In this document: piece by piece, positions 4,066 through 39,977 of the stretch
How positions within the stretch are numbered: position 1 is the first letter of the stretch
Layout: every line of letters begins with the position of its first letter
NCBI GenBank assembly: GCA_043803945.1
Contig: JAZDJN010000051.1
Span: 1 to 40,053 of the forward strand
Direction of reading: 5' to 3'
Length of the DNA stretch: 40,053 bases
Origin: a bacterium
GTDB taxonomy: Bacteria > Bacteroidota > Ignavibacteria > UBA10030
Made by a program: the position numbers and the translations under genes
The notes under the pieces: generated by a model
The model's input: the letters and a program-made list of their open reading frames with translations, nothing else
The model's database searches: none
Told to the model about the DNA's origin: nothing

Positions 4066-4169
4066 TGTCATTCCAGAATGCTTTTATCTGGAATCCAGGC
4101 GTGAGGTGATCTTGGTTCTGGATTCCCGCTTTCCGCCAAAAAGATGGCGGACAGGTCGCGGGAATGACA
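4066..4169. repeat. REP/MITE-like palindromic element (TGTCATTCC...GGAATGACA) with a nested 24-bp insert
   Basis: 9-bp terminal inverted repeat; internal hairpins ATTCCAGA/TCTGGAAT and ATTCCCGC/GCGGGAAT; related copy at 25170-25290. Confidence 0.8.
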
Positions 4170-4174
4170 AGAGA

Positions 4175-4390
4175 GAGAAAAAGGGGGCACCTCTTTTTCG
4201 GCTGTCTTTTAGGCGGGTTCTACAGGTACAAAACAAAGGCGCGAATCTAACGCTCCTCTGTCTTAAGGTACCTGAGAGTACCCGCACGCAAAGAAGACAT
4301 CAGACCGCGCCCTTTCGGGCGTGGCTGACTCCAATCTTGCGTGCAATAAAAAATTCTCAGGTTTTTAAGACAAGACAGCAGCCGAAGCTA
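4175..4390 (-). ncRNA. Putative structured leader RNA upstream of mod-res: ~115-nt multi-segment hairpin followed by a terminator-like hairpin
   Basis: Nested pairings 4259-4266/4365-4372, 4270-4277/4355-4362, 4284-4291/4337-4344, apex 4300-4328 with a GAAA loop on the minus strand; hairpin at 4177-4199. Confidence 0.55.
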
Positions 4391-4470
4391 CGCTATTTAA
4401 AAATATGTGAGTTGTGAGTATTAAGTTGTTGAGTTAACCTTTCAGAATTCAAATGAATATACAATAAAAG

Positions 4471-5088
4471 TCATTCCTGTATGGGGGAAATTCCTTCTGC
4501 AATCATTCTGCGAACAATAACCTCGTCTGATACATAGAAGCGTTTGGCAAGTTTTGGCGCAATAAGCTCCCGTATAGCTGATTCCTCAAGATCGGGTACA
4601 ATTATTTTCCCCTTCTCAATAAGCGGTTTCATCAATTTCAGTTCTTGAATCAATAATACTGGTGGAACGAGCAGGCGCCCTGCAAATTCACGAGCCTGAT
4701 ATTCCGCCCGTCCCCATAATGCTTCTGGCAATTCGCGCTGAATTGTTTTCCATTCTTCATAGCTGCTTGATCGCAGTTGTGAGATGATTTCTTTATGGAA
4801 TACATAATGGCCAATTTCATGTGCAATGGAAAATCGAATGCGTACATCTGGGCTGGCAGGATCAATAACAATCTCACGCAGATTTCCCGAGAGATAAGCG
4901 TCTGTATGTGCTTGATAACGTAAGTCAGGGACTGGAATAATAAGGAGGTCAAGACTACGTTCGACAATAAGGTCCACATCGATTGGGAGCTTTTCTCCCC
5001 AGTACTTTTCACGGAACTCATCAGCACGACGACGAATTTCCTCATCATTGCGTCGCGGTAACTGGATTTTTGAAAAGTCGATGGACAA
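4471..5088 (-). CDS. ImmA/IrrE-family Zn metallopeptidase (DUF955)
   Basis: RFSIAHEIGHY (HExxH) and EYQAREFAGRLLVP motif; TTG start directly after the HTH gene. Confidence 0.88.
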   Translation of the reverse strand: MSIDFSKIQLPRRNDEEIRRRADEFREKYWGEKLPIDVDLIVERSLDLLIIPVPDLRYQAHTDAYLSGNLREIVIDPASPDVRIRFSIAHEIGHYVFHKEIISQLRSSSYEEWKTIQRELPEALWGRAEYQAREFAGRLLVPPVLLIQELKLMKPLIEKGKIIVPDLEESAIRELIAPKLAKRFYVSDEVIVRRMIAEGISPIQE

Positions 5089-5092
5089 GTAA

Positions 5093-5455
5093 CTATCTCT
5101 TCTTAATCAGGGCAATTAATTTATCAAGCTCTTCCTCGCTTGGTTTTTCTCCCCGCACTGTGCGGAAAAACACGGGCAATGCTTCAATGACCTCTTTATC
5201 GTTATAGACATCATCCGGTATTCGCTGCTGAGAGAGGGAAGCAAGATCGAAAAATGTTGCCCAATCGCTTGAATGTTTCTTGAGCTTAAACAGTTTTGCA
5301 ATGTTTTCCAGCGACTCACGCGTACCCAATGCTGGAAGGAGATCGCGTTCTACCTTGCTCCAGTTGCTCGGATCAAGTTCGGCTTGTCTGCAAAATTCGC
5401 GCAGACTTAATTCTGCCTGTAATCGCTTCTCGCGGACAAATGCCCCAAATGTCAT
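5093..5455 (-). CDS. XRE-family helix-turn-helix transcriptional regulator
   Basis: FGAFVREKRLQAELSLREFCRQAELDPSNWSKVER is a typical XRE HTH; GAGGAG RBS before the ATG at 5455. Confidence 0.88.
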   Translation of the reverse strand: MTFGAFVREKRLQAELSLREFCRQAELDPSNWSKVERDLLPALGTRESLENIAKLFKLKKHSSDWATFFDLASLSQQRIPDDVYNDKEVIEALPVFFRTVRGEKPSEEELDKLIALIKKR

Positions 5456-5469
5456 GGTTCTCTCCTCTT

Positions 5470-5530
5470 GGTGTGGTAATAAATATACCACACCGCCTTC
5501 CTATTGTCAAGTATTTTTTTTTGGTGTGGT
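5470..5530 (-). promoter_or_regulatory. Sigma70 promoter with overlapping palindromic operator for the XRE-ImmA operon
   Basis: TTGACA (5510-5505), 17-bp spacer, TG-extended TATATT (5487-5482); perfect IR GGTGTGGTA-N7-TACCACACC at 5470-5494; third half-site GGTGTGGT at 5523-5530. Confidence 0.78.
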
Positions 5531-5794
5531 TTTCGATTTGCTAAGAAGAAAAGTATAAAACTCATTGATGGAAAAATGATTGGTGGTTTATATCTGTACT
5601 GATGAGCGATAAGAAAGGTAGTGTCGGAGTTAAACATCGTTCTAATTCAGGAGGGAAAAGTTCTCCGATCTTCAAAGTCGATCGTATAGAATTACAAGAT
5701 GAGTATTTGTGTTAGAATAACATTTTTTGAAGGTGTACCGTTAAGCCTTTGGAATTACAGTATTTCCTAATACAGCATCAGTAAATACACATCT

Positions 5795-6721
5795 TCAATA
5801 CCCAATCCCACGAGCTGCTGAATCCAGAATCTCTGCACTCCGTTCCAGTGCTTTGCGCTCATCTTCTGAAAGTGCCGGCTGAAGCGTTGAGACGACTCCC
5901 TGAAAACCGATTACCCGTGGCAGCGATAAGGTAACATCTGCGAAGCCTGCAAGCCCACCTTGTGATACCGTAAGCACTGCCCCTTCATTGTCATGGATGG
6001 CCTGAGCTATCCGCGTTAAGCCAACTCCAATGCCGTAGTACGTAGAGCCTTTGCCTTCGATAATCTTATACGCTGCATGGCGCACACCGCTGTCGATATC
6101 AAATTTCAATTGCTCTGTAAGTTCTTTTCCACTCTGACTGCCGTACTCAGCGATCGGAAGCCCTGCGGCGGTTGCGCTGGACCAAAGAAGTACTTCGGAA
6201 TCGCCATGTTCCCCCACGACATAGGCGTGAACAGACTTGGGCGAGATCTCAAAGAAATCTCCCAGTAATGCCCTGAGTCGTGCTGTGTCGAGAATAGTCC
6301 CTGATCCAATGACTCGCGAGGGCGCTCCTCCCACGATTTTCGTTACGACCCGAGTCATGATGTCGACTGGATTTGATGCAACAAGGAGAATGGCATCGGG
6401 AGCATGCTGAAGAACTTTTTTTGTCACTTCCTCGAAGATCTGTGCGTTCTTACCAAGTAGTTGAAGCCTCGATTCATCGGGTTTCTGGTTCACACCGCAG
6501 GTTAACACTACAATGGCTGAACCAGCGATCTCTTCATAGCCTCCGGCTGAAATTTTTACTGGATTGGAGAAGGGTGTTGCGTGAAGAATGTCTTCGGCTT
6601 GAGCACGCGCGAGTGATGTATTAATATCGACAAGAACAATCTCACTCGCAGTCCGGCGTAACACCATAGCATAGGCCGTCGTGCTTCCAACGAATCCCGC
6701 TCCGATAATACTGATTTTCAT
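5795..6721 (-). CDS. ldh: L-lactate dehydrogenase
   Basis: IIGAGFVG Rossmann motif, GVNQKPDESRL (Gln in the specificity loop), NPVD, LDTAR, GEHGDS. Confidence 0.93.
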   Translation of the reverse strand: MKISIIGAGFVGSTTAYAMVLRRTASEIVLVDINTSLARAQAEDILHATPFSNPVKISAGGYEEIAGSAIVVLTCGVNQKPDESRLQLLGKNAQIFEEVTKKVLQHAPDAILLVASNPVDIMTRVVTKIVGGAPSRVIGSGTILDTARLRALLGDFFEISPKSVHAYVVGEHGDSEVLLWSSATAAGLPIAEYGSQSGKELTEQLKFDIDSGVRHAAYKIIEGKGSTYYGIGVGLTRIAQAIHDNEGAVLTVSQGGLAGFADVTLSLPRVIGFQGVVSTLQPALSEDERKALERSAEILDSAARGIGY

Positions 6722-6732
6722 AATTTCCTTAC

Positions 6733-6882
6733 ATCTGCGACAATCTGTGATCTTTCCGTGTGCTCAGTGTTCTAACTTTTCGAACTGGACCACTGATAAC
6801 ACTGAAAAAGGGATGCTCACTGATCTGTGTAAATCTGTGATCTTTCCGTGTAATCAGTGTTCTATCTTTTCAAACTGCTCTA
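6733..6882. repeat. Intergenic repeat: two 46-bp direct copies 90 bp apart, built of ATCTGTG/ATCAGTG units
   Basis: 6742-6787 vs 6832-6877 match at 42/46; terminus CTTTTCAAACTGCTCTA matches the end of the 31923 element at 15/17. Confidence 0.75.
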
Positions 6883-7031
6883 TTCATTACAACCACATTT
6901 GCAGCGACTCAGTTCCCATAAAGAAATGAGACTCCCTTCTGATCATAGAGCGAATTCAAATGGTTGGACATTTAGGTCGAATTGTACGTCAGATGAGAAA
7001 TTGCAGGAGTGGTAGGTTTCTGCTGTGGAAA

Positions 7032-7066
7032 CAAAAGAGGAGTCCCTCAAATTGAGCGACTCCTCT
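7032..7066 (-). terminator. Probable intrinsic terminator after the S9 peptidase gene
   Basis: AGAGGAGTC...GACTCCTCT stem followed by a T-run on the minus strand. Confidence 0.6.
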
Positions 7067-7152
7067 GCGAAGATGGTTTACTCAAGCGGATATGTGAGAT
7101 ACCAAAAAACTCTTAGGGCTTTAGCCCTTTCTCTATGAGAGGATTACTTGAT

Positions 7153-10005
7153 TTACTTTACGTCCAATTCATATCCTCTCGTTTTCCCTTTTTCGATTGC
7201 CGGAAGACCTTTTGTCATCCAGACTGGAGCCGGTTCACCTTTCAGGTAATGATCGAAAAATTGGGAAAGACGGATAGAGAGGTCTTTTCTGTTCTTCCGT
7301 TGAACAAGGTTGTGTGCTTCACCATTATAGACCAGCAGCCAGGCCGGCTTCTGCAGACGCCGGAGTGCCGTAAAGAATTCAATACCTTGATACCAGGGAA
7401 CTGCTCCATCGGCATCATTGGACATGATCAGGAGTGGTGTGTTGATATACGGTACACGGAAGATTGGAGAATTCTCGATATAAAGCATTGGCGCCTCCCA
7501 CAGTGTTGCACCGATGCGGCTCTGTGTTTTTTCATACTGGAACATCCGGCTCATACCCGATTCCCACCGGATTCCGCCATAGGCACTTGTCATGTTCGAA
7601 ACCGGTGCCCCTGCACCTGCGGCGGCAAACATTTTCGAATTTGCCACCATATACGCAGCCTGGTATCCACCCCAGCTTTGCCCCTGAATGCCGATCTTTG
7701 AACTGTCGATGAATCCCTGAGCGACCAGTTTCAGAATGCCGGGCACAATACAATCGAGAGCGCTCTTACCGGGATACCCAACCTGATACCGGATGTCAGG
7801 AACAAATACAATGTACCCCCGACTGACAAAGAAGGAAATATTAATCGTGGAAGCGGATGGTGCCGGTGCAATATAGCGGTGGAGTCCATCGGACATGCGT
7901 TCATAGAAATAGGAGATGAGGGGGTATTTCTTTTTCAGATCGAAATTCTCCGGCTTGTAGAGCAATCCCTCAAGCGGCTTTCCATCCGCTGCCATCCAGG
8001 AGATCAACTCAACGCTGCCCCAGAGATACTCCTTCTGTTGCGGATTAATAGTACTGAGCCGCTCGAATGTTTTGAATGAAAGGTCCGTCAGGTACAGATC
8101 GGGAGATTCCTTGAACGTGCTTCGTGTCAGAATAATCCTGTCGACCTGCTCTGCTTTTCTTGGTGTGGCGAAATCATAAGCATCAAGCAAAAGCCGCGAT
8201 GGCGGCTGTGAACCATTCAACTTCATTGTCGAGAAGCCTGCGGATTTACTCACGTATGAGAAAGTTGACAAGAGGATCTGAACATCAGGTTTTAGAAATC
8301 GTTCCTCAGGATCGAGACGCACATAGCGGAACCGCAGTTGCTCCTGCCTGCCAACGCTGCGTGTGATATTTTCAGCGGCTCGTTTTCCATCGGGGTCGAG
8401 CCTCCAAATATCATACCGATCATAGACAAACAGATCTTCATCATTTTCAGTCCAGCCCATCAAACCGTACGACGAGGGAGTATCGGGAACATCATTTAAC
8501 TCGTTATGGACGGCATAGGGAATCCTTGCGCTCAGGTTGATCATCTTGCCCGAACTGAGCGAGTAGCAATGCCAGCTAGAATCTGTACCGGTAAACCAAT
8601 AGAGGTACTCCAGGTTGGGAGAGAGGGATGCGCTTCCGTCGAGTTTTTCCAGTATTTTCTTCGTCGATCCGGTGTTGACATCGACCAGATAGATATCGTT
8701 ATAGGATCCATCCCACGAGACAAGCTGCCGGTACTTGATATCCGATGTACCAATTGCAATCTCGGCATCACCGTCTTTACTAATAGATACGGTTGGCAAC
8801 TCTTGCGATGCCAATTGTATGAATTTCTTTTTCTTCAGTTGGAAGACTGAAAGGTACGAACGCTTCTTTTCTGTCTCCAGGTTCTTCAATTGTTGCGGCT
8901 GCAAGAGAGGATCTTTCCAGTTCCAGATATCGAGTTTGGCGGTCTCTTCATCATTCATCGTAGTATCGTCGGGCATCAACACGGGGGAAGTACCGAGGAA
9001 GAGCTTCTTGCCATCCTTCGAGAAATAGACCCGTGCATTTTCATTCACCAGCCACTTTGAAGGAAGTCCCGCTGTCAAGGTATCAACAACCTTTTCCGCA
9101 GATTTTAACTCCGTGTTCCAATAATACAGAGCATAGTATTTCTGCTTTGCCTTTGAGGTATCCTTATGTGCGATAAATGCAGCCTGGTTCCCTTCATCGT
9201 CACAGATGACATTCTTATACTTTCCTTTGCCGGAGAGTAGTGTATCGATGATCGTTTGCGGCGGTTCAGCGGCTGCCTTGGTTGTACTCATTGTTAAGAC
9301 ACCAGAGTTTAATGTGCTGTCGTTGCCTGTTGTGGTGAGAATAAGCCGACTGCCATTTTTCGAAAACACAAACTCACTGGCAAAGGGGAAGGAGTACTCC
9401 TTGGCGGTCAGAAGATTCCGCAGAATAACGGTCGTTCCCTTTTCCTCTTTCTTATCAGCTTCATCTTCCGGGGCATCGCTCACGCCGTCCTTTTTCTCAG
9501 GAGTCTTTTTGACCTTTTTCGTTGTATCGACAGGTTCTTTTTCCAGTTGATAGGCTAACCAACCGGATCCCTTCTCCGGCGTCTTGAACGATTTGACGCG
9601 GGGAATTTTCGTTACCTTCATTGTGGCGAGATGGAGGATACCGAGTGTATCTTTGGGCATATCATCAGGCTTCTTCTTGGCGATTTTCATTTTCTTCACT
9701 TCTGCGAAGAACGGTTTGATCATGAAGGCAGCATAATCCGAAGCTTCCGATATGCGAGCTCCGGTTGCCCGGGGAATGGTATCGTAACGACAGGATTCTG
9801 TGTTATACACTACAAGATGTGCATCGCCCTCTTGGGGTTCAACAGAATAGAGAATCCATTTACCGTTTTTCGAGATGACGTCGCCGGCAATGCGATTCCA
9901 TCCATCGTAGACGTTATGATCGAGCGGTTTTTTTGTTGTCTGGGCAAGGAGTGTCGGTGTGAGAAGAACCAGAGCAATGAGGAGAAGTACAAGCGAAGAA
10001 CGCAT
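7153..10005 (-). CDS. Secreted S9 family (prolyl oligopeptidase-like) peptidase
   Basis: Signal peptide MRSSLVLLLIALVLL, beta-propeller region, GQSWGG nucleophile, DGAV Asp, GEAH His. Confidence 0.92.
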   Translation of the reverse strand: MRSSLVLLLIALVLLTPTLLAQTTKKPLDHNVYDGWNRIAGDVISKNGKWILYSVEPQEGDAHLVVYNTESCRYDTIPRATGARISEASDYAAFMIKPFFAEVKKMKIAKKKPDDMPKDTLGILHLATMKVTKIPRVKSFKTPEKGSGWLAYQLEKEPVDTTKKVKKTPEKKDGVSDAPEDEADKKEEKGTTVILRNLLTAKEYSFPFASEFVFSKNGSRLILTTTGNDSTLNSGVLTMSTTKAAAEPPQTIIDTLLSGKGKYKNVICDDEGNQAAFIAHKDTSKAKQKYYALYYWNTELKSAEKVVDTLTAGLPSKWLVNENARVYFSKDGKKLFLGTSPVLMPDDTTMNDEETAKLDIWNWKDPLLQPQQLKNLETEKKRSYLSVFQLKKKKFIQLASQELPTVSISKDGDAEIAIGTSDIKYRQLVSWDGSYNDIYLVDVNTGSTKKILEKLDGSASLSPNLEYLYWFTGTDSSWHCYSLSSGKMINLSARIPYAVHNELNDVPDTPSSYGLMGWTENDEDLFVYDRYDIWRLDPDGKRAAENITRSVGRQEQLRFRYVRLDPEERFLKPDVQILLSTFSYVSKSAGFSTMKLNGSQPPSRLLLDAYDFATPRKAEQVDRIILTRSTFKESPDLYLTDLSFKTFERLSTINPQQKEYLWGSVELISWMAADGKPLEGLLYKPENFDLKKKYPLISYFYERMSDGLHRYIAPAPSASTINISFFVSRGYIVFVPDIRYQVGYPGKSALDCIVPGILKLVAQGFIDSSKIGIQGQSWGGYQAAYMVANSKMFAAAGAGAPVSNMTSAYGGIRWESGMSRMFQYEKTQSRIGATLWEAPMLYIENSPIFRVPYINTPLLIMSNDADGAVPWYQGIEFFTALRRLQKPAWLLVYNGEAHNLVQRKNRKDLSIRLSQFFDHYLKGEPAPVWMTKGLPAIEKGKTRGYELDVK

Positions 10006-10068
10006 GATGACCTCAAAGGTTGTGTGGATCAAGATGGGTAATCAACTCGGTCGATCGCCCATGGTGAA

Positions 10069-11763: not shown

Positions 11764-11954
11764 GTGATACTCTTTCGTTTATTCAACTCTGATGTATGGC
11801 ACGCGTGGAAAGGTAAAAGATTCTTCCTCGAAATTCTCAATATTTTTATTGGATTGTTCAGGAAATAAACCTGCAGCCCGATGAGTGAGTGAGAGCCACC
11901 CTTTCTGAGCAGGGAGATGAGGACATTCGCGTCACCGGGAAAGTGCCAGTAATA

Positions 11955-12389
11955 CTATTCCTTCTTTCCCATATAGACGAGTTCAACATTTGCCTGTTTG
12001 GCATAATCACCGATCCGTTCATCCTGGTAGAATTCTTTATAGTACACCACCCGGATGCCGGCATTGGCAGCAAGCTTGAAACAGGTGAGGCATGGCGAGG
12101 CAGTGACATAAATCTCGGAATCGTTGATCGCCACACCATGCTTCGCAGCCTGGGCAACGGCATTCGCTTCGGCATGGACAGTACGAACACAGTGTCCGCT
12201 CTCCATATCATGTCCCGCATCGTCGCAGTGGGGAGCACCGCGGAGGCTGCCGTTATAGCCTGTGGAGAGGATGGTCTTGTCGCGCACGATCACCGCACCC
12301 ACATGTTTTCGATCGCAGGTGCTCCGGGTTGCTACCTGTTCGGCGATATTCATAAAATACTCATGCCAGTCAACGCGTGTATCGGTCAT
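11955..12389 (-). CDS. dCMP deaminase (ComEB-like cytidine/deoxycytidylate deaminase)
   Basis: RSTC..HVGAVIV, TGYNG, HAEANA, SPCLTC Zn-binding motifs. Confidence 0.92.
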   Translation of the reverse strand: MTDTRVDWHEYFMNIAEQVATRSTCDRKHVGAVIVRDKTILSTGYNGSLRGAPHCDDAGHDMESGHCVRTVHAEANAVAQAAKHGVAINDSEIYVTASPCLTCFKLAANAGIRVVYYKEFYQDERIGDYAKQANVELVYMGKKE

Positions 12390-25040: not shown

Positions 25041-25146
25041 TGGTTTTTCTTATGAATGAAATTATTATCTGAACATCTGACGTTACGCAGGAAGAAGAAT
25101 ATGTATAATTGAAGTGATTAATCTTGTTTTTGACCTCCCCTTTTGG

Positions 25147-25319
25147 GGGCTGTCCAAAAAGAAATGATGTGTCACACCGGAATGCCTTAATCCGGTGTCC
25201 AGTGCCTTAGTTAAGCATTTTTCTGGATTCCCTGCCTGCCAAAGTTTCTTTAGCACGCAGGCATGCGGCTAAAAGATTGCCGGAATGACAGACCGCAAGT
25301 ATTCTTTTTAGTCAGTCCC
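25147..25319. repeat. Nested palindromic element: outer imperfect IR, REP-like core 25170-25290, 35-bp insert 25231-25265
   Basis: Core homologous to 4066-4169; outer arms GGGCTGTCCAAAAAGAA / TTCTTTTTAGTCAGTCCC. Confidence 0.75.
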
Positions 25320-25414
25320 ATATGGGGTGGTTTGGGATTTACTAATGAGAGCCCAGATTGATTGATGATTTTTCGTTTATACGGAAAGTGTGTTAGTAAT
25401 TAGAAGGGAACAAT

Positions 25415-29017: not shown

Positions 29018-29914
29018 GTGGAGTTTGACGAAGGAAGAATTGAAAGACATCATGGAAAGTTTAAAGGAGATGAAATAGGCTTGGACAAAGAGCTGATCAT
29101 TTTTTGCGATGAATCTGACCGCCGTGGAAAATTCTTTTCAAATTTCTATGGCGGTGTACTGGTCGGCTCCTCTCAGTATGAACAAGCGACACGCATGTTG
29201 AATCAAAAGAAAGAAGAATTGCATTTCTTTGGAGAAGTCAAGTGGCAAAAGGTGAGCGAGCGATATCTCAACAAGTACAAAGCCCTCGTCACCTCTTTTT
29301 TTGATGAGGTCGTATCGGGAAAGATAAAAGTAAGAGTAATGTTCACTCAAAACGCTTACGTTCCCAAAGGCTTGTTGAGAGAACAGGTCGAGATTGAGTA
29401 CTTTTTGCTGTACTATCAATTCATAAAACATGCGTTTGGATTGCAGCACAATCCGTTCAAGGGAAATGGTGTCCGCCTGCGATTATATTTCGACGTGTTC
29501 CCGCACAAGCGTGAAAAGGTAGAACAGTTTAAAGGGTTCCTTCTCGGTTTGGGGAAAAGCGACGCATTCCGGATTGCGGACATTCATCTTCAAAAAGAAG
29601 ACATCGCAGAAGTCCGATCACACGAACATGTTTTGCTCCAATGCCTCGACATTGTATTGGGAGCAATGGCCTTTCGACTCAATGAGAAGCATAAGGGAAA
29701 AATGTCGGGTCAACGTCGGCGGGGGAAGAAAACAGTTGCAAAGGAACAACTCTATCGCCACATCCTGGCCCAAATTAGAAGAATATTTCCAGGATTTAAC
29801 GTTGGTGTTTCAACCGAGATGCGAACAGGCTTTCAATCTTTATGGAACGACCCTTACCGACATTGGCGACTCGTTCCGCGGAATTCGCATTATGATGAAG
29901 CCTTAACGAAGTGA
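29018..29914 (+). CDS. DUF3800 family protein (RNase H-like fold, putative nuclease)
   Basis: N-terminal IFCDES, GEVKW, LYFD, and SHEHVLLQCLDIVLG; probable start is the TTG at 29081. Confidence 0.8.
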   Translation: MEFDEGRIERHHGKFKGDEIGLDKELIIFCDESDRRGKFFSNFYGGVLVGSSQYEQATRMLNQKKEELHFFGEVKWQKVSERYLNKYKALVTSFFDEVVSGKIKVRVMFTQNAYVPKGLLREQVEIEYFLLYYQFIKHAFGLQHNPFKGNGVRLRLYFDVFPHKREKVEQFKGFLLGLGKSDAFRIADIHLQKEDIAEVRSHEHVLLQCLDIVLGAMAFRLNEKHKGKMSGQRRRGKKTVAKEQLYRHILAQIRRIFPGFNVGVSTEMRTGFQSLWNDPYRHWRLVPRNSHYDEALTK

Positions 29915-29922: not shown

Positions 29923-30070
29923 AAAAAAATAGAAAACCCCGCTTGGCCTACGTAAGTACCTGACGCATGACGTCAAGTTTCGGACAAGCAGGGTTAAACA
30001 ATCTAAACGTGGGCCGACTTTCGTCGTCCCGGGTTAATCCTACTCAGAAGTCGAGCTGCCTTTCGGATTC
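29923..30070 (-). ncRNA. Putative ~145-nt structured ncRNA convergent with DUF3800
   Basis: Own promoter, three stem domains with G-U pairs only on the minus strand, GAAA motifs, closing 11-bp stem followed by a U-rich tract. Confidence 0.72.
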
Positions 30071-30076
30071 GAGTAC

Positions 30077-31235: not shown

Positions 31236-31241
31236 GAATCT

Positions 31242-31919: not shown

Positions 31920-31922
31920 CTA

Positions 31923-32064
31923 TAGAGCCGGTTGAAAAGTCTGCCACAGAGACACAAAGCTCACTGAGATTGATAATAGTTTGTTATATCCTCAATATTT
32001 CAAAAAGATTATCTCTGTGTTCTCTGTGACTCGGTGGCAAAGTCACTTTTCGACTAGATTACTA
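31923..32064. repeat. MITE-like inverted-repeat element between the response regulator and kinase genes
   Basis: Ends GTTGAAAAGT / ACTTTTCGAC; inner arms GCCACAGAGACACAAAG...GAGAT / ATCTCTGTGTTCTCTGTGACTCGGTGGC. Confidence 0.7.
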
Positions 32065-32084
32065 TCAGAAGACTTCAAAACACG

Positions 32085-33470: not shown

Positions 33471-33598
33471 GTCCCTTCGTTACACTTTTCCAACTGTTAC
33501 CATATGGCACCGAATGACCTGCGGTGAACTGTGTGAACACCGGTGATCGGGTTGGCAGAATAGTATCCATCGCAGGCATTGGTTTCATAAGAAAGATG

Positions 33599-34138
33599 TT
33601 ATTTCTTCTTTTCCTTCTTTTCTTTCGATTCTTTTTCTTCCTTTTCTTCCTTCTCTTCCTTTCCCTCTTTTTTCTTTTTGGATACGATAGAGCCATCAGG
33701 ATTCAGAACGACCTCATACTGCTCCTTTTTCACAGTAACCACAAGCTCATATTGAACTGTAGCGTCTTTGGTAACCTTCTCTGTGGTAGAGATCTTTGCT
33801 TTTGGAAATTCTTTCGCGATGGTTTTTCGGACCGCATCTGGCAAGCTGGCGTATGGAAGAGTTTCTTCTGCTGATATCATGCTTCCGTCAGATGAGTAGG
33901 TGATGTCGCGTTTGATTTTGCCTTCAGTGCTTTCGATTTCATACACCGTAGCGTCCTTTTCTGTTTCCTTCGAATATCCCTTGATTGTTGCCTTGGGATA
34001 CGCTTTCTGGAATGCATCGAGAATTGCTTTTGGTACATCCTTTTTCTTTATGGACTGTTCCTGGGAAAAACTGCTGCCGGCAAGAACAACGCAAAGAAGA
34101 AGTGTTACGAGTGTAGCGAACCGGAATCGTGTGGCCAT
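33599..34138 (-). CDS. Exported PepSY-like/BLIP-like (DUF2874-type) protein with a K/E-rich tail
   Basis: Signal peptide; two repeats (VPKAILDAFQKAYP..YEI..DG; LPDAVRKTIAKEFP..YEL..DG). Confidence 0.75.
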   Translation of the reverse strand: MATRFRFATLVTLLLCVVLAGSSFSQEQSIKKKDVPKAILDAFQKAYPKATIKGYSKETEKDATVYEIESTEGKIKRDITYSSDGSMISAEETLPYASLPDAVRKTIAKEFPKAKISTTEKVTKDATVQYELVVTVKKEQYEVVLNPDGSIVSKKKKEGKEEKEEKEEKESKEKKEKKK

Positions 34139-34189
34139 GGTTGTGGTACCTTTCATTGAGTGAATGTGGTTGTTTGTTGTGAAGCCTTA

Positions 34190-36598
34190 TTAGATGCTAT
34201 TATCGTACTTCAGGAGTTCTTCGTTCGATTTTTTCGGTGGAGTGCCAAAATGATAGGTCAGGCCGAAGTAGAATATTTGGGAATCGCGCTTGTTCACTGT
34301 ATGCCGGCGCAGGAATGGTGTGTAGGTATCGTTCTCTCCCTTCACTGTTTTAAAGAGGTCTGCGACCGTAAAGACCAGGGAGACAGTTTTTTCCCAAAGA
34401 TCCTGCCGCACTCCAGCATTCACAACATAGCTTGAGGGGCGTTCACCCTGAGGGGTCAATCGGGCTGAGTTGTAATTCGCTTTGAGCTGAATCATCGTTG
34501 TTGCCGTTGGATTGATATTGAAGGTGAACGCACCCCGCCATGTCACTTGCGACTTGTTGCTGCTGTAACCAAGATTTGAAGCATCGATCTGGTTATAGAA
34601 CGCATTTGCGCTGACGTGCGTTGTGAAACGACTGTTCATGCTTGCCGAGACAATCACTTCCATGCCTGCCGATTGATCCTCGGAGAGATTTTGTTCTGTC
34701 GTGAGCAAGGTTGAGTCGTTCAGCGCCTGCGTTACGCTCGTAAATCGATTATAGGTGTACCGGTAGTAAAGTGTTGGGAGTATCGACATCCAATCGTTTT
34801 GCAGCATGCCGCCGAGTTCCAGAGAGTGTGTGTACTCCGGCAATAAATGCGGGTTGCCTGCAGAAATATTCCTCGGATCCTCATAAGTGGGGAACGGATT
34901 GAGCTCCTCCGCATCGGGCCTCTCCGTGCGCCGGCTGTAGTTTAACTGCACCTCCGCCTCTTCGCTAAATTTGTAGGTAAGATGGAGCGATGGATAAAGA
35001 CTGTTATAAGAATTATTGATGATCGAATCACGCGTGACAAGATTTGAAGTCGTTGTGACTCGTTCTGCCCGCAAACCGCCTAAGATTCCAAACTTCCCAA
35101 AAGAGTGCTGAAACGTTGAATAGAATGCATGAATATTCTGATCGAGAATGAATCGGTTTGATCTGCCGATGTCGATAAGAAATTTTTGCTGGATAGGGTT
35201 GAATAACTCCTGAACATAGTCGAGGGCGATGCGGTTAAACTCACCGGAATATCCGGCTTCGAGCATGGAGTTGTCGAACAGTGGATTGGAGTAGTCGAGC
35301 GAGAGCTCCTGTTGATTCTCGTCTTGCTTGTCGAATATGTTCTCAAGTTGATCAGGGCTGCGCGGCACTTGATAGAGAGTGGTAAAATGGTCGTCTTCGT
35401 TATCGATCTGACGTGAAGCTTTATACTCAACTTGGAGCTGATGATCCTCTTCTGGGAATTTATGTTCTCCACGCATTGTGAGACTGTACTCTCTCTCGAA
35501 CTGATCCTGGCTCAGATTCCGTGTATAGTTGCTTGTTTCCATTCTGGTATTATTCCACAGAATTGTTCTGGCGTTGTCCATCCGATTCCTGCTGTTCAGG
35601 AAATAGGTACCGGAGATCCCAGCGTTGGTCGATGGATCAAATTTGTAATCGCTGCCGAGCGTGATCATATGGGAAAGAGGCCGTGCAGCAGATACTTGTT
35701 CCTGGTTATAGTAATGCACCTGCAGCGAATCATCGATCTGTTCCCGGGTATCAATATTCGATCTATTCCGGTTTTCCTTTCGTATGCCGTAGCTTCCAAA
35801 GAGATTAAGGTTCCCTGGATTGTAATTGAATTGAACGTTGCCGTTATACCGATCACTGTTTCCGGCATTTACCGTTGTGCTTCCATGAGCGCCAAGATTT
35901 GAGTTTTTCTTTAAGACGAGGTTAATGATTCCCGAAGTCCCTTCCGGTTTGTACTTTGCCGAGGGATTGGTGATCACTTCAATTTTCTCAATGGTGCTTG
36001 CCGGCATTTGCTGCAACACATCCGCGCGATTTCTTCCCATTAACGGAGAAGTTTTACCATCGATCATCACAAGAACATTCGAAGACCCGCGTAGGCTTAC
36101 GTTTCCGTCAATATCCACTTCCACCGAAGGGATGGTCTGGAGGAGTTCGCTCACAGAGCCGGATTTGCTCATAATGTCCTGATCCACATTAAACACTTTT
36201 CGGTCAATGGCATTATTGAATAATGCTTTTTGTCCTGTCACTAATACTTCATCAAGGTTGACAGTCGTTTCTTTGAGCACAATAGTACCAAGGTTCACGG
36301 TGCTGCGCTCCGGCGTAACGTTGGGAACCGGAATTCTTTTTTCACGATATCCGATGAAACTGATCCGGAGAAAACAGTCACCGTTTGGAATGTTCTCGAC
36401 AATAAATTTTCCAGCTTTATTTGTCACAACACCCTTGACAAGAGTACTATCAGCGTTCTTTTGCACCATGACATTGACAAATGCGATTGGGAGATGTGTC
36501 GATTCATTAATGATGATGCCGGTAACACTCTGTGCTGCGAGCAGAAGAGGCAGGAGATGAAGGAGGAGAAACGTAATTCTTGAACTGGCTCTGATCAT
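34190..36598 (-). CDS. TonB-dependent outer-membrane receptor
   Basis: Signal peptide, carboxypeptidase-regulatory-like N-domain, plug IEKIEVITNPSAKY..EG, barrel GNPHLLPE, FGLTYHFG. Confidence 0.9.
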   Translation of the reverse strand: MIRASSRITFLLLHLLPLLLAAQSVTGIIINESTHLPIAFVNVMVQKNADSTLVKGVVTNKAGKFIVENIPNGDCFLRISFIGYREKRIPVPNVTPERSTVNLGTIVLKETTVNLDEVLVTGQKALFNNAIDRKVFNVDQDIMSKSGSVSELLQTIPSVEVDIDGNVSLRGSSNVLVMIDGKTSPLMGRNRADVLQQMPASTIEKIEVITNPSAKYKPEGTSGIINLVLKKNSNLGAHGSTTVNAGNSDRYNGNVQFNYNPGNLNLFGSYGIRKENRNRSNIDTREQIDDSLQVHYYNQEQVSAARPLSHMITLGSDYKFDPSTNAGISGTYFLNSRNRMDNARTILWNNTRMETSNYTRNLSQDQFEREYSLTMRGEHKFPEEDHQLQVEYKASRQIDNEDDHFTTLYQVPRSPDQLENIFDKQDENQQELSLDYSNPLFDNSMLEAGYSGEFNRIALDYVQELFNPIQQKFLIDIGRSNRFILDQNIHAFYSTFQHSFGKFGILGGLRAERVTTTSNLVTRDSIINNSYNSLYPSLHLTYKFSEEAEVQLNYSRRTERPDAEELNPFPTYEDPRNISAGNPHLLPEYTHSLELGGMLQNDWMSILPTLYYRYTYNRFTSVTQALNDSTLLTTEQNLSEDQSAGMEVIVSASMNSRFTTHVSANAFYNQIDASNLGYSSNKSQVTWRGAFTFNINPTATTMIQLKANYNSARLTPQGERPSSYVVNAGVRQDLWEKTVSLVFTVADLFKTVKGENDTYTPFLRRHTVNKRDSQIFYFGLTYHFGTPPKKSNEELLKYDNSI

Positions 36599-36643
36599 CG
36601 TATTATCCAGGGGTATTGAGTATTGTCTGAATCGTGTGGATGT

Positions 36644-36675
36644 AAGATAAGAGAGAAAGATGAAAAGGGGATGAA
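36644..36675 (-). promoter_or_regulatory. Second copy of the putative OmpR-family box plus -10 element, upstream of the TonB receptor
   Basis: Minus strand TTCATCCCCTTTTCATCTT (18/19 to 31204-31222); TATCTT 9 nt after the second TTCATC. Confidence 0.65.
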
Positions 36676-36817
36676 AAGAAAGGCTTAAAGTACTCTCTTT
36701 GAAAAATACTGTTCGGGATAAGATAGTCTTAAGGTACTCTTTGAACGATAACGTTGCAGATGAAAATGGCAGGTTTGATCATTCAGATGTTTGGAGGTGT
36801 TAGAATAAGACAGGTCA

Positions 36818-38965
36818 TTAGAAAAGGGGATTCAAACCTTCCCAACGAACGTTCCATGTTTCGTCCTTTGGGAAACCAGGTGTAGAGATTGTGTTTCCCT
36901 CAAATCCAGCGCACATCATCGCGACGGCTGATAGTAAGGCGCCATTGCCGGGTAGGTAGAGTCGCAATCGACCATCCTGATAATTATGCCCGCTTACAAG
37001 GTACGTGTTTGTTCTCTGATTCATGAAGAGAGCTTCGATCGCCTGCTCGGGCGAATGTAATCGAGTTGCGGCCATTGCTGTAAAAGGGAAGTCCCAGCCC
37101 CAGGTCTCTTCCCAATGCCAATTCTGCAAGACGGTATGAAAAGTCTGTTTCATAATCGTGGTGTCGACGTATCCCGATCCATCAAGCATACCGTAGATAC
37201 CGAGAACTGCCGGATGATCGGTCATCAACCGAGGATTAGAATAACTGTCGGGCGCGCTTTCAGCGGCGAGATAGAGATCATCTTTCTGTGGAAGGGAAGA
37301 GAGCTTGCTGAGCACGGCAACCCACTCGGGATTTTGTGGCAATCCTAAACGATCACACCATATCAACGCGGTCGATAATCCCCAGCGCCAGTAAGCAAGT
37401 TCGAACGGAGTATTAAAAGTCTCTTCGGGATTGAATCGTTCTTGAGCGGGAATAATTCCCTTACCTAAGATAAAGCGTTTGTTTGTGCTGTCATACTGTG
37501 CACATGAGGCCATGAAATCAGCGGTGTCAAACACAAGATTCTTATACTTCTCGAGTGTCTGTCGATTCCGGTAGTGTCGGTAACAGAGTTCAGAAAAGTA
37601 GATGATATGTGGTTGCTGCCAGAGTAAGAAAGGTCCGATTTTTGAAGGGCTGTCCATCCCTTCCGGATCTGTCATCTTAGGCCAACGGACTCCTTTGAAT
37701 CCCTGACGTGCAGCAATTGCTTTGGCAGCAGTATATGTTTGACGATACCATACTAAGCTTTTCTCCAGAAGGTCGATTCGATTCCAAAGTGCGAAATGAA
37801 CTCCATGCCACCAATGCATTTCGAGGTGAAATTTTCCATACCAGCTATTATAGGTCAATCCTGTTTCCTGTGGAGGAAGGGAACCAGAGCATTGGATTTT
37901 GGTGAGATATTGTGAAAGAACAACGCGACGCTCTAACTCTTTGGCGCGCTTATCAGTGCATAACGAAAAATCAACTGCACCGCCACGAATCCAGAACGTT
38001 TTCCATGCTCCTCGATTGTCTGATTCTGTCGAGGGAAAGGAAGAGAGTGGTTGGGTGACTTTCTCCTGTGAGAAGAGACAGCTAAACTCAAGCTCGCTTT
38101 GATCGGTCGATAAGAGATAGGAGTGATTTTCTTTTTTGGTGAATGAGCAGTGACCGTTCCAATCGACCTTCACAAAATAGATTGTGGAATCTAACCGTCG
38201 TTCAATAATAGTACTATTCTTTAACTCTGTCTCGATTGTAGAATGTTTTTCACTCTTGGTCCAATCGCAAGCCCAGTCTGTGTGTTCTCCTGATGGATAG
38301 GGAAATCGAAATACTACCTTGATCTTTCCAGAACGCAATCGTTCCGATACAACCCTGACACCAATTTGATCTTTCTCTGGATGACAAATGGTTGTCACAA
38401 AGATTGTTTCGCGGTCAATCTCAAACCGGCTCATGATTTCACCGGTCCAGAGATTCAATTCCTGGCGGATGTTTTTGATTTCTTCCGGAGATATTTTTAT
38501 TCCCTGATCAGAAAGCAGTTCGAATCCGATTATGCCAAGGTGAAGGCGATGGGGATTTTGCCGGAAGAATTCTGAGGCTTTTTTCTTCCTCTCTGGTTCT
38601 GACCATTGATATGGAACACTGGCAACAGTATTTCCAAAGTTGAATTCCTTTAAAGTCTCCTTATATCTGAAGTCGTTAGGATTTGGGAAGGAATGCCATG
38701 CCCATTGTGATTGTGTGCCGAGAGGAATTCCATTCTTGTAATATTCGGGAAATGTCTGTAATCCTGTCGCATCAACGGTGAAAGCGAATTCACCATTTCC
38801 GACGGAAAGAGATGAAAGAGAATCGAATGTGGTAACCGAAATGGTATGTCGTAAAACCAACGCCTTTCTGTCAATGGGAGCCTGTGGTTGGGATGAACTG
38901 TCCAATGCAAAAAGCAGCAACGCTCCAAATAATATCGTAGTACTTTTCTTCAGAGTCTCACTCAA
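36818..38965 (-). CDS. Secreted six-hairpin glycosidase-like protein (GH65/GH95-like; family uncertain)
   Basis: Signal peptide; LSVGNGEFAFT N-domain, PPQETGL, WYGKFHLE, Trp-rich (alpha/alpha)6 region, YLPGNG. Confidence 0.7.
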   Translation of the reverse strand: MSETLKKSTTILFGALLLFALDSSSQPQAPIDRKALVLRHTISVTTFDSLSSLSVGNGEFAFTVDATGLQTFPEYYKNGIPLGTQSQWAWHSFPNPNDFRYKETLKEFNFGNTVASVPYQWSEPERKKKASEFFRQNPHRLHLGIIGFELLSDQGIKISPEEIKNIRQELNLWTGEIMSRFEIDRETIFVTTICHPEKDQIGVRVVSERLRSGKIKVVFRFPYPSGEHTDWACDWTKSEKHSTIETELKNSTIIERRLDSTIYFVKVDWNGHCSFTKKENHSYLLSTDQSELEFSCLFSQEKVTQPLSSFPSTESDNRGAWKTFWIRGGAVDFSLCTDKRAKELERRVVLSQYLTKIQCSGSLPPQETGLTYNSWYGKFHLEMHWWHGVHFALWNRIDLLEKSLVWYRQTYTAAKAIAARQGFKGVRWPKMTDPEGMDSPSKIGPFLLWQQPHIIYFSELCYRHYRNRQTLEKYKNLVFDTADFMASCAQYDSTNKRFILGKGIIPAQERFNPEETFNTPFELAYWRWGLSTALIWCDRLGLPQNPEWVAVLSKLSSLPQKDDLYLAAESAPDSYSNPRLMTDHPAVLGIYGMLDGSGYVDTTIMKQTFHTVLQNWHWEETWGWDFPFTAMAATRLHSPEQAIEALFMNQRTNTYLVSGHNYQDGRLRLYLPGNGALLSAVAMMCAGFEGNTISTPGFPKDETWNVRWEGLNPLF

Positions 38966-39102
38966 ATGATAAACGGTGTCAATCCGAATAAAAGGATTGA
39001 TTAGAAGAATATCAAGCTTCGAAATGTTAGTAATGAGTATGAGAAGATACTGCGGTGGACTCTGGATGCTCGTTTGCGACTTGTACGGCGGAAGACCATT
39101 TC

Positions 39103-39328
39103 AGGATGTAGAACCAGGCAGGCAATCGAAATTCTCCCGGGTAAATCAATGTCCCTCGACTCGTCTTTCGGTTCACACCTCGACCGCTCGACTGTGCTCG
39201 CGGCTCGGTGTCCGCTCGGGACTCTTCGACACTCACCGATGGGGCAAAGCTCTCAGCGAGCCCCGTTGCCTCTTAAAAAAAGGTGCCCCGTTGTAAAGGA
39301 TACGGGGCGAGTCGAAGAGTTCCGCGGG
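39103..39328 (-). mobile_element. Degenerate tandem unit: tRNA-end remnant, palindromes and the first codons of a GIY-YIG gene
   Basis: Colinear with 39690-39922; encodes LPAWFYIL vs MPAWFYIL of the intact gene; GTCGAAGAGTTCCGCGGG vs GTCGAAGGGCTCCGCGGG. Confidence 0.7.
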
Positions 39329-39427
39329 TCCGCCTACGTTTACACTTCCGCCTTCACTTGTGTTCCGGACAGGTCGGCGGATAAATAGGGCCCTGCGTCT
39401 GCTAACCAACCTATGGAAAAATTGAGA

Positions 39428-39712
39428 TTATTTCTTTCTGCATTTTGCCAAAGATTTCAGCTCAGTGATATCTCCTTTGATCAGGGCCTCCTTTTTAGCA
39501 CGGGACCAACGCTTGACCTGATGCTCGCGTTGCAGGGCTTGTTTCATTGTGTCGAATTGTTCGGAGTAAGCAAGAGTAAGTGGAGGATCTATCTTTGTAG
39601 TACGACAACCTCTCCCTGAGAAGTGATCAGTTATTCTTTGCTCAAGCGTTCTTGTAGCGCCTGAATAAAGTGAACCTGATGTTAACTGCAATATATAGAA
39701 CCAGGCGGGCAA
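39428..39712 (-). CDS. Small GIY-YIG nuclease (YhbQ/COG2827-like)
   Basis: WFYIL...LYSG..LEQR..H..G..TT, ALQREHQVKRWSRAKKEALI; TTG start. Confidence 0.9.
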   Translation of the reverse strand: MPAWFYILQLTSGSLYSGATRTLEQRITDHFSGRGCRTTKIDPPLTLAYSEQFDTMKQALQREHQVKRWSRAKKEALIKGDITELKSLAKCRKK

Positions 39713-39738
39713 GAATTCTTTCCTCCACTGGAATAGGT

Positions 39739-39911
39739 CCCTCGACTCCGCCTCGATTCAGCTTTCGGTTCATTTCGTTCACTCAGGCTTCACACGGCGT
39801 CGCTCGGGACTCTTCGACTCGTCCCTTCAAGGGGCAGAGCCCTGAGCCAGTCCCGCGTCCATCAAAAATAGCACGTCGGACTACTTATTCAAATAGCGGG
39901 ACGAGTCGAAG
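39739..39911. repeat. Nested REP-like palindromes upstream of the GIY-YIG gene
   Basis: Perfect 14-bp IR CTTCGACTCGTCCC (39812-39825) / GGGACGAGTCGAAG (39898-39911); CCCTCGACTC...CGCTCGGG unit. Confidence 0.75.
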
Positions 39912-39912
39912 G

Positions 39913-39977
39913 GCTCCGCGGGTAGGGCTCTGCGCCAAATATAGGCGCATGAGCCTCCGGCTCAGAACCTACAACCT
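39913..39977 (-). tRNA. tRNA 3'-half fragment (Asn-like) with a 34-bp insertion in the T-loop
   Basis: GGTTGTAGGTTC[insert]GAGCCCTACCCGCGGAGC: T-stem GTAGG/CCTAC and acceptor 3' strand ending GGAG; no 5' half or anticodon, so identity is inferred. Confidence 0.75.

Follow-up and report, generated by a model that had tools for sequence, protein, structure and literature searches.

The four small inserts in the window (the whole 40,053-nt stretch of DNA that was analysed) are members of several related repeat families, ultra-small, palindromic and non-coding, whose insertion is precise and biased by structure, and they are among the smallest apparently mobile DNA. Dozens of exact filled and empty pairs, from the genome, its relatives and metagenomes, define the unit that moved, the absence of a duplication and the preference for loops. 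We give slightly better than even chances to these being REP-like or SDR-like mini-elements that move in the form of single-stranded hairpins, the enzyme, as we infer, being probably of the HUH type.

The four inserts and their hosts

All four mini-hairpins that the initial annotation had described inside pre-existing hairpins lie where it placed them and have the sequences it gave (Table 1). A host hairpin is left at every site when the insert is removed, and for sites 2 and 4 exact empty copies occur at other places in the genome. Two of the inserts carry slightly different limits in the table: the stretch first given as 4134–4157 is the identical insert to 4132–4155, offset by a boundary ambiguity of 2 nt, and 39349–39375 corresponds to 39347–39373 by the convention of the family. 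The ends said to be common to sites 1 and 3, CGCC...CGGACAGGTC, are real, and a search of the genome with this pattern gave 15 matches.

Table 1 Coordinates of the mini-elements, their hosts and neighbouring features in the window
Feature	Position	Strand	Description
Site 1, family A mini-element, 24 nt	4132..4155	+	TCCGCC stem, 8-nt loop, GGCGGA, CAGG tag
Site 1, host hairpin	4122..4165	+	ATTCCCGC (4122-4129) / GCGGGAAT (4158-4165), loop TTTC
Site 2, composite CCTGCC...GGCA(T)G mini-element, 35 nt	25231..25265	+	Inner hairpin degenerate; 1-nt boundary ambiguity
Site 2, host, MITE-like repeat, ~200 nt	25130..25330	+	Internal hairpins 25170-25203 and 25227-25289; other copies in same genome
Site 3, outer mini-element	39330..39386	+	TCCGCC...GGCGGA with TAAA(T) tail; ~30 nt without guest
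Site 3, inner element, degenerate, family-A-type	39347..39373	+	13-nt-loop subtype, 2 stem bases lost
Site 4, double hairpin, 34 nt	39931..39964		Hairpins 39931-39949 and 39950-39964; in T-loop of tRNA-Asn 3' fragment
tRNA-Asn 3' fragment (T arm and acceptor 3' strand)	39913..39990	-	Upstream of GIY-YIG ORF
Small GIY-YIG-domain ORF, 94 aa	39428..39712	-	PF01541, E 2.7e-14; no NCBIfam match

Once the insert is removed, the host of site 1 folds with −10.9 kcal/mol (z −4.3 relative to shuffles), and the junction lies in its 4-nt loop. This host belongs to a CTGG-ATTCC...GGAAT-GACA repeat family, with an inverted partner hairpin at 4070–4094, and among the 36 matches to the family in the genome 28 are uninterrupted (20 or 25 nt) and 5 interrupted; the uninterrupted relatives include one with an identical TTTC loop (C99:8345). 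The empty counterpart of site 2 is an exact 24-mer at C18, and the predicted fold places the junction outside the loop of the host, in its 5′ stem (ATTC/CGGC, the slash marking the junction). Nine copies of the ~200-nt host repeat could be aligned, in which mini-inserts are present or absent at several positions, and in the C16 copy both hairpins are empty.

At site 3 the loop of the outer element holds the inner one, and the outer element is itself missing from the neighbouring paralogous unit (39913 onward). Relatives of the outer element with the GGCGGATAAA(T) tail are found at C101 and G286, and intact copies of the inner 13-nt-loop subtype at C32, C101, C104 and C113. The junction of site 4 has no ambiguity (m=0), and the exact empty copy lies in C29 within an intact tRNA-Asn(GTT) gene, which is followed there by the same tRNA fragment carrying the site 4 insert. 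The fragment in the window is not a functional tRNA gene, and ARAGORN called no tRNA in the window. Such inserts can disrupt structured sequences, tRNA-like ones among them, and also break assemblies: a second, truncated copy of the site 4 element begins at 40039, and the end of the window, which is the end of the contig, falls inside it.

Families of small palindromic repeats

Members of the main superfamily combine a GC-rich stem of 6 bp (TCCGCC, CCCGCC or CCTGCC) with a loop of 4–23 nt and a 3′ tag of 4 nt, which is CAGG, CAAG or CTGG, so that on the opposite strand the tetranucleotide comes before the palindrome, an arrangement like that of REP elements. A second family consists of pairs of T...A hairpins of 30–34 nt, and across the families the units measure 19–37 nt. 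A CAGG tail stands behind 141 of the 4460 GC-rich perfect hairpins in the genome, when about 17 are expected for one 4-mer, and hairpins with a perfect stem and any of the three tails amount to 216 strand-hits and 158 loci. The family A 24-mer alone has 36 copies at up to three mismatches. Placement is intergenic, with 7 of 143 elements within ORFs of at least 300 aa, although such ORFs make up 71% of the genome.

The hosts are many and unrelated: some are themselves mini-elements, some are other palindromes of REP/MITE-like kind and some are remnants of tRNA T-arms. Nesting between elements is seen in both directions and reaches three levels (for example at C101:1914).

Precision and position of insertion

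An unbiased scan of the genome for filled and empty pairs gave 246 non-tandem candidates and, for hairpin inserts of up to 64 nt, 99 distinct events. What a filled copy has and an empty one lacks begins exactly at the first base of the stem and ends at the last base of the tag, in many hosts without ambiguity, and paralogous copies of a host carry other inserts or none; a 50-nt insert distinguishes paralogues whose flanks are identical at 194 of 200 positions. The predicted position of the junction is a loop in 60 events, a stem in 25 and outside both in 14, against 36.5%, 40.9% and 22.5% in the null, which leaves 39 of the 99 outside predicted loops; as the scan requires the host to be a repeated sequence, palindromic hosts are favoured in this sample. 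Of the 99 junctions, 52 can be placed without ambiguity, whereas 32 are ambiguous by 1 nt, 12 by 2 nt and 3 by at least 3 nt; no target duplication is made, and the initial annotation had likewise noticed no clear one.

The initial annotation had proposed a mechanism that targets structure immediately after TTC, and the first part of this proposal agrees with the precision and loop bias of the 99 events. TTC does precede all four inserts of the window (on the minus strand at site 4, and within an ambiguity of 1–2 nt), but it is not a general target, since it stands before 11 of the 99 junctions against 6.8% expected (p = 0.07), and no 3-mer is prominent upstream of them, the excesses of TC and CC being weak. 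In the 24-nt family the TC of this motif is part of the element itself (TCCGCC...), and in metagenomes a T precedes TCCGCC in only 44 of 104 contexts.

In these events the guest is located within the host, not adjoining it, and the host hairpins are restored exactly once the element is removed. Both observations argue against a history with no insertion at all, in which mosaic repeat arrays (BIME- or NIME-like) were reshuffled by recombination, or longer palindromes suffered deletions that left the "empty" copies. Palindromes are indeed prone to deletion, and ambiguities of 1–2 nt are in slight excess (44 of 99 events, where equal base use would give about 23), but ambiguity of 3 nt or more is so rare that slippage between direct repeats is unlikely. 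The many filled copies with the same host and site, which would also fit such a history, indicate that these were copied as composites, while a 24-nt unit with identical ends recurs in more than ten unrelated hosts in this genome, besides the metagenome contexts. We therefore regard reshuffling or deletion as improbable, and insertion as the better account.

The elements have no preferred orientation, whether judged by GC skew (91 of 189), which tracks the gene strand well in this genome (odds ratio 8.5), or by the strand that carries the majority of genes (57 of 105). IS200/IS605 elements show a replication-strand orientation bias, so that its absence here speaks against the HUH model, although passive copying within hosts could blur a bias of this kind. 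Transcription-dependent spread might also give a bias, relative to neighbouring genes, and its absence counts against an RNA intermediate, in which a transcribed hairpin would be inserted by reverse transcription or in a manner like reverse splicing. Such an intermediate has reportedly been proposed for cyanobacterial SDR elements, which the present elements resemble in size, nesting and hairpin form, and the genome holds four reverse-transcriptase matches. However, no link between the elements and any reverse-transcriptase gene was seen, and DNA transesterification explains the precise, duplication-free boundaries at least equally well, so the RNA route appears to us an unlikely one compared with movement as single-stranded DNA.

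Spread across genomes and metagenomes

The 24-mer, at up to three mismatches, occurs in 23 of the 301 genomes of the phylum sample, from several families (a reversed control gave 2 hits), and the 24-nt family is found in at least 122 metagenome stretches, with some copies in head-to-tail tandem. In the 104 distinct metagenome contexts the element lies in a loop in 54, against 36.9% expected (p = 0.0013). A gapped pattern specific to the site 1 locus had 0 matches in the metagenome scan, and in the 30 relatives searched, none of them congeneric with the source genome, the matches were repeat fragments only and gave no orthologous empty site. For a 10-kb stretch of the window no public sequencing run was listed. 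In literature searches with the element sequence, neither the 20-nt palindrome nor the 18-mer turned up in any paper and the matches to a 10-mer were unrelated, and the listings of searches on Marinimicrobia repeats and nested palindromic insertions showed nothing on these elements.

The loop of the 24-nt family is conserved like its stem, across genera and families, and a larger context, in which the element stands between CCTAACGGA... and TAAGCTGC..., recurs in several genomes and metagenomes. Both features would suit a selected functional site, such as a protein-binding or RNA motif, that arose or is kept by selection and not by mobility. We attach little weight to this explanation: the 104 contexts are otherwise unrelated, a strand preference relative to genes is absent, the copies form tandems and nest within other repeats, and a comparison of the window with Rfam gave no matching family, the four sites included.

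Candidate enzymes

The initial annotation had named the GIY-YIG protein as a candidate enzyme; on this reading the protein would cut hairpin loops after TTC and drive the insertion of the mini-elements. Its ORF lies within ~250 nt of sites 3 and 4. The genome contains 16 matches to GIY-YIG, of which about 13 are small ORFs, and several are flanked by palindromic repeats of their own (of the ATTCC...GGAAT host type at C112). However, tagged hairpins are not enriched near the 13 small genes (1 within 1 kb, against 0.74 expected), sites 1 and 2 are distant from every GIY-YIG gene, and TTC fails as a general target. The small ORFs are instead tied to tRNA genes, with 4 of 13 within 600 nt, in addition to the tRNA fragment of the window, and GIY-YIG enzymes are known as nucleases of homing and repair that nick DNA or cut both strands, and not as strand-transferases. 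The suggestion is therefore dropped as very improbable.

The HUH enzymes that we favour are represented in the genome by 12 Y1 genes, each flanked by its own palindromes, with a canonical GTAG-tagged Y1/RAYT-like gene at C56. Their association with tagged hairpins is weak: five lie within 1 kb of a Y1 gene, against 0.77 expected, and four of these five are at one locus. Over six genomes a family A copy lies within ~1.5 kb at only 2 of 37 Y1 loci, and G145 has three diverged copies of the element and no Y1 match. Co-occurrence of Y1 genes and elements cannot discriminate here, because Y1 is present in 93 of the 121 genomes of the class.

Two RAYT-like genes do have mini-elements beside them. 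Around the one at C72 there are four CCCGCC...GGCGGG-CTGG copies, guests in another palindrome, and the one in G133 stands between two host hairpins whose loops hold the 24-nt family. As the mini-element is in both cases a guest in the flanking palindrome, the cognate repeat of these RAYTs may be the host and not the guest. A dedicated gene carried between tagged hairpins was also considered and rejected: 22 pairs spaced 250–3000 nt enclose unrelated ORFs of housekeeping type, except for the RAYT-like gene at C72, and between paired copies in G133 and G195 there are redoxin, DUF5677, PIN and HEPN/nucleotidyltransferase genes and no transposase.

Proposed mechanism

We propose that the element would fold and move as single-stranded DNA, and that a trans-acting HUH/Y1 enzyme (RAYT or IS200-like) may cut it out and paste it. 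Insertion would prefer hairpin loops because these are accessible single-stranded stretches of repeat-rich intergenic DNA, and host-plus-guest composites would then be copied onward as a whole. HUH chemistry and the definition of REPs are used here as given in Corneloup 2021 (PMC8266576). The exact filled and empty pairs open the question to tests in which oligonucleotides of defined sequence are combined with the 12 Y1 proteins that are candidates.

A bolder reading, which we find possible but doubtful, is that these are unrecognised, widespread "hyperparasitic" hairpin transposons of ~20–37 nt, each a tagged single hairpin, excised and pasted precisely as single-stranded DNA, and choosing targets by structure and not by sequence. 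Their targets would be the loops of other REP-type hairpins, of tRNA arms and of each other. If this were true, few mobile DNAs would be as small, and the dissemination of REP-type repeats could for the first time be viewed directly, in the exact filled and empty pairs.

Comparison with known systems

One likeness of the proposed single-stranded mini-elements is to REPs, which are palindromes of 20–50 nt, compared with 19–37 nt and 6-bp stems here. Both are high-copy and intergenic, and this genome has many palindrome-flanked Y1/RAYT-like genes. REPs are further defined by a conserved tetranucleotide beside the palindrome (PMC8266576), mostly GTAG, or CGTC, whereas the conserved tag here is CAGG, CAAG or CTGG (CCTG on the other strand), and no cognate RAYT was identified for these elements. 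REPs inside other palindromes have been described in three species by Di Nocera 2013 (PMC3733652). The present elements differ in that they nest repeatedly and occupy, as guests, the loops of REP families other than their own, and in having their moved unit set by exact filled and empty pairs, for which the texts consulted give no REP counterpart.

The proposed model also resembles the peel-and-paste movement of IS200/IS605-derived PATEs (palindrome-associated elements), in that insertion and excision would be single-stranded, hairpin-dependent, precise and duplication-free. PATEs, however, exceed 19–37 nt several times over, carry two subterminal hairpins that differ from each other and insert 3′ of a fixed target of 4–5 nt with strong replication-strand bias, whereas here a single hairpin of 19–37 nt is found, with neither a fixed target nor a strand bias. 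MITEs (Correia/NEMIS, ERIC, RUP and others) are likewise non-autonomous, intergenic, hairpin-folding repeats, and they make target-site duplications. Their length is given as 70–300 bp, with terminal inverted repeats, in PMC3733652. The elements described here are much shorter, at 19–37 nt, and make no duplication.

In their small size, dispersal and nesting, both in themselves and in other repeats, the elements are like the SDRs. Elhai et al. (2008, Genome Res 18:1484) reportedly described SDR1–8 of Nostocaceae as dispersed, hairpin-forming repeats of 21–27 nt that nest in each other and in other repeats. The sequences here are probably unrelated to these and come from another phylum, with the closest matches in Ca. 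Neomarinimicrobiota MAGs, and the families have a 3′ tag and a measured loop preference. SDR-like repeats are reported in Nostocaceae only, according to PMC5861425. The present families extend very small nested mobile repeats beyond Nostocaceae to an unrelated, largely uncultured lineage.

Mini-hairpin insertions across the genome

The initial annotation had described four mini-hairpin inserts in the window (sites 1 to 4), and its sequences at these sites proved correct as written when re-read from the window. The observation is confirmed and is much broader than four sites. The genome (G000) contains 99 distinct events. To obtain these, each 12-mer of G000 was combined with a second 12-mer lying 12-100 nt downstream, and we asked whether both are adjacent elsewhere in the genome. 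Removal of tandem repeats and CRISPR arrays left 246 candidates, which were reduced to inserts of at most 64 nt whose stem has 5 bp or more, identical contexts being merged. Sites 2 and 4 are among these filled/empty pairs (the same flanks with and without the insert); sites 1 and 3 were not recovered by the exact-match scan of G000, and the empty relatives of their hosts, the hairpins receiving the insert, are only near-identical. Three CRISPR arrays with differing repeats were also met in the scan, and the repeat of the C48 type has about 120 copies in G000.

Across many different hosts, the filled/empty pairs delimit the insert exactly: its first base is the first of the stem and its last base the last of the tail. 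The junction can be placed without ambiguity (0 nt) in 52 of the 99 events; it is ambiguous by 1 nt in 32, by 2 nt in 12 and by 3 nt or more in only 3, which bears out the earlier remark that no clear target duplication is visible. The ambiguities of 1-2 nt lie somewhat above the expectation for equal base use; GC-rich ends could account for this excess, as could a duplicated stretch of no more than 1-2 nt. The ambiguity pattern does not fit a deletion caused by slippage between direct repeats. One 50-nt insert separates two paralogues with flanks identical at 194 of 200 positions, which points to a recent event. A tiny tagged hairpin with exact ends is, as a single unit, present or absent in otherwise matching sequence, with no duplication.

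The four window sites and their hosts

The hairpins at sites 1 and 2 belong to one family, with arms ATTCC...GGAAT and flanks CTGG and GACA. This family has 36 matches with a 3' GAC, 28 of them uninterrupted (20 or 25 nt) and five with inserts of 5-35 nt, while the remaining three are long and probably due to chance. The site 1 host without its insert folds with -10.9 kcal/mol (z = -4.3 relative to shuffles), the junction lying in the 4-nt loop, and at site 2 the predicted fold is a 25-nt hairpin whose 5' stem, rather than its loop, is split by the 35-nt insert. Site 2 lies within a repeat of about 200 nt that resembles a MITE and contains two hairpins. In an alignment of nine paralogous copies, the one on contig C16 is among those without insert; others carry a 35-nt or 20-nt insert at the same point, a 21-nt insert at another position of the loop, or a double hairpin of 30 nt, which in one copy has 47 nt more nested within it.

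The window is the entire contig C51 and ends inside a repeat of the site 4 region. It contains two units of about 590 nt in tandem, the GIY-YIG ORF being absent from the first. The site 3 insert is a degenerate copy within the loop of a second small element, which is absent from the paralogous unit starting at 39913. Site 4 had been assigned to a tRNA T-loop; the T-loop is real, but the window copy is only a duplicated 3' tRNA fragment, and ARAGORN called no tRNA genes in the window. The uninterrupted version is found on contig C29 within an intact tRNA-Asn(GTT) gene. A terminator-like hairpin comes next after that gene, and beyond it the same 3' fragment as in the window, with the insert. Two tandem arrays elsewhere in G000 have a 99-nt period. 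Each unit is the decayed 3' part of a tRNA-like sequence, and its T-loop contains a composite of 54 nt, a double hairpin with family A (defined below) in its second loop.

Positions of features in the window and at related loci (C-numbers, contigs of G000; G133, a further genome)
Feature	Position	Strand	Remarks
Type III restriction-modification pair	window 131-4071 (res 131-2071, mod 2074-4071)	-	just upstream of site 1
Site 1 host arms	ATTCCCGC 4122-4129 / GCGGGAAT 4158-4165		insert (4134-4157) between arms
69-nt direct repeat	window 6733-6801, 6823-6891		81% identical
Site 2 insert	window 25231-25265
Rfam DUF3800-VIII RNA	window 29933-29997	-	52.6 bits; directly after DUF3800 gene 29018-29914
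Site 3 insert	window 39349-39375		outer element 39330-39386
Site 4 insert	window 39931-39964		paired small hairpins within T-arm-like sequence on the minus strand
GIY-YIG ORFs beside tRNA	window 38976-40053; C29 ~8200-8350; C109, C99, C98
Palindrome-flanked GIY-YIG genes	C112:9248-9800; C73:17200-17700; C68, C80, C12, C101
99-nt tandem arrays	C102:41-440; C60:19340-19720
CRISPR arrays	C48:900-2300; C7:30000-31700; C56:45-1560
Reverse-transcriptase match	C7:27580-28194		adjoins C7 CRISPR array
RAYT-like locus (L211)	G133:C2:729842-733273		RAYT-like gene, 210 aa, between cas9 3' part and cas1-cas2

Insert families and their distribution

The largest group of inserts, the tagged hairpins, combines a GC-rich stem of 6 bp (TCCGCC, CCCGCC, CCTGCC and a small number of others) with a 4-23-nt loop and a 4-nt tail. 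The tail CAGG follows 141 of the 4460 GC-rich perfect hairpins of G000, compared with 51 for the next commonest tail and about 17 expected per 4-mer; with CAAG and CTGG included, the tagged hairpins occupy 158 loci (216 strand-hits). The 24-nt member, at site 1, represents family A (TCCGCC stem, 8-nt loop, GGCGGA and CAGG tag) and has 36 copies in G000 at up to 3 mismatches; site 3 is a subtype with a 13-nt loop, and the element at site 2 is of the CCTGCC type and contains an inner hairpin. Site 4 represents a second family, the 30-34-nt paired T...A hairpins (double hairpins). Nesting of one family in another occurs in either direction and reaches three levels.

Of 301 genomes sampled from the phylum, 23 contain the family A 24-mer with up to 3 mismatches, compared with 2 hits for the reversed control pattern. 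They include 8 of 14 genomes from the same family, 3 of 14 from two further families of the order and 7 of 16 from one family of the class. The 24-mer also matched at least 122 stretches of public metagenome contigs. The elements range across a clade of class level and numerous environmental samples, and across genomes the loop sequence of family A is conserved as well as the stem. Among the relatives searched, G000 is the sole member of its genus, and the phosphoglycerate mutase of the window has at most 82% identity to proteins of Candidatus Neomarinimicrobiota MAGs.

Family A also recurs across genera in a larger conserved context, CCTAACGGA..GGCGC, then the element, then TAAGCTGC.., seen at C52:906, in genomes G203 and G282 and at no fewer than ten metagenome loci (e.g. 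L218, L228, L255, L283); this may be a larger repeat or structured element including family A. At metagenome loci L229 and L277, two or three family A units lie head to tail with no spacer.

Placement of the insertions

The restored 60-mers were folded with DNA parameters, all positions of the same 60-mers serving as the null. Of the 99 events, 60 have the junction in a loop enclosed by a stem, 25 in a stem itself and 14 outside hairpins altogether, against 36.5%, 40.9% and 22.5%, respectively. The within-genome scan detects repeated hosts only, and therefore favours palindromic hosts. The metagenome contexts of family A are free of this bias, and there the junction is in a loop in 54 of 104 distinct contexts among the matches listed (36.9% expected, p = 0.0013). 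Contexts from other genomes of the phylum give the same picture, several having perfectly complementary arms around the element. The proposed structure-biased insertion of very small non-autonomous elements is supported, and the loop bias is replicated in the metagenomes. The tagged hairpins are intergenic: only 7 of 143 lie inside ORFs of at least 300 aa, though such ORFs make up 71% of the genome. The elements sit in many unrelated hosts, are repeatedly nested and prefer loops.

The proposal of TTC as the insertion site holds for all four window sites (on the minus strand at site 4, and with 1-2-nt ambiguity) but not as a general target, since 11 of 99 events have TTC before the junction on either strand (6.8% expected, p = 0.07). 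Junctions show only a weak dinucleotide excess, of TC (33/99 vs 20%) and also of CC. The apparent TTC at family A comes from the element, whose own first bases are TC. In the metagenome, the base preceding family A is T in 44 and the following base T in 56 of the 104 contexts among the matches listed, and this mild T preference on either side is all that is left of the TTC rule.

Candidate enzymes

The GIY-YIG protein suggested as the enzyme is not supported, as the 13 small GIY-YIG genes have one tagged hairpin within 1 kb of them, compared with 0.74 expected. These ORFs (83-105 aa) adjoin tRNA genes or duplicated tRNA fragments, the types being Asp, Pro, Ser (twice) and, for the fragment in the window, Asn. 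On C99 the ORF has a 5' tRNA-Pro fragment on one side and the intact gene on the other. The association looks like a tRNA-targeting GIY-YIG cassette. Each small GIY-YIG gene has copies of its own palindromic repeat on both sides, which on C112 are of the ATTCC...GGAAT host type. The arrangement resembles a REPtron, with the GIY-YIG gene standing where the RAYT would.

The Y1 transposase family has 12 matches in G000, mostly RAYT-like ORFs of about 180-220 aa. In favour of a Y1/RAYT link, five tagged hairpins lie within 1 kb of them (0.77 expected), but four of these are at a single locus on C72. Each match lies between its own palindromes, one of which is a canonical GTAG-tagged REP. Also in favour, the mini-element at the RAYT-like genes of C72 and of G133, the latter between cas9 and cas1, is a guest in the loop of a different, gene-flanking palindrome. 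Evidence against a Y1 link is that a family A copy is nearby at only 2 of 37 Y1 loci in six genomes, that the three diverged copies of genome G145 are not accompanied by any Y1 match, and that Y1 genes occur in 93 of 121 genomes of the class. The elements also show no orientation bias relative to GC skew (91/189) or gene strand (57/105), which counts against the link; GC skew itself tracks gene strand (odds ratio 8.5). In the G133 locus a 30-nt palindrome (AACCCTTCCAGCGTT...AACGCTGGAAGGGTT) lies within both the cas1 and RAYT ORFs, with unbroken frames.

No common gene was found in the intervals between paired elements. G000 also has four reverse-transcriptase matches and one match of IS110 type. 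The elements probably move as folded single strands through a cut-and-join reaction of HUH/Y1 type. Loops would be targeted as the unpaired parts of repeat-rich intergenic DNA, and host-plus-guest composites would afterwards be copied whole.

Relation to known systems

Very small nested repeats, the SDRs, were reportedly described in Nostocaceae by Elhai et al. in 2008. Another study states that no SDR-like repeat was found outside Nostocaceae (PMC5861425), and our literature search by sequence returned no paper with the 18-mer or the 20-nt palindrome of the elements. REPs are defined as a tetranucleotide plus a 20-50-nt palindrome, intergenic and in many copies (PMC8266576). The present elements have the same architecture, but a different tag, and no cognate RAYT was identified in the surroundings of the 12 Y1 genes. 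REPs inside other palindromes have been noted in three species (PMC3733652). The elements are REP-like or SDR-like, and the real interest of the finding is that their exact filled/empty pairs make the mechanism of dissemination testable.
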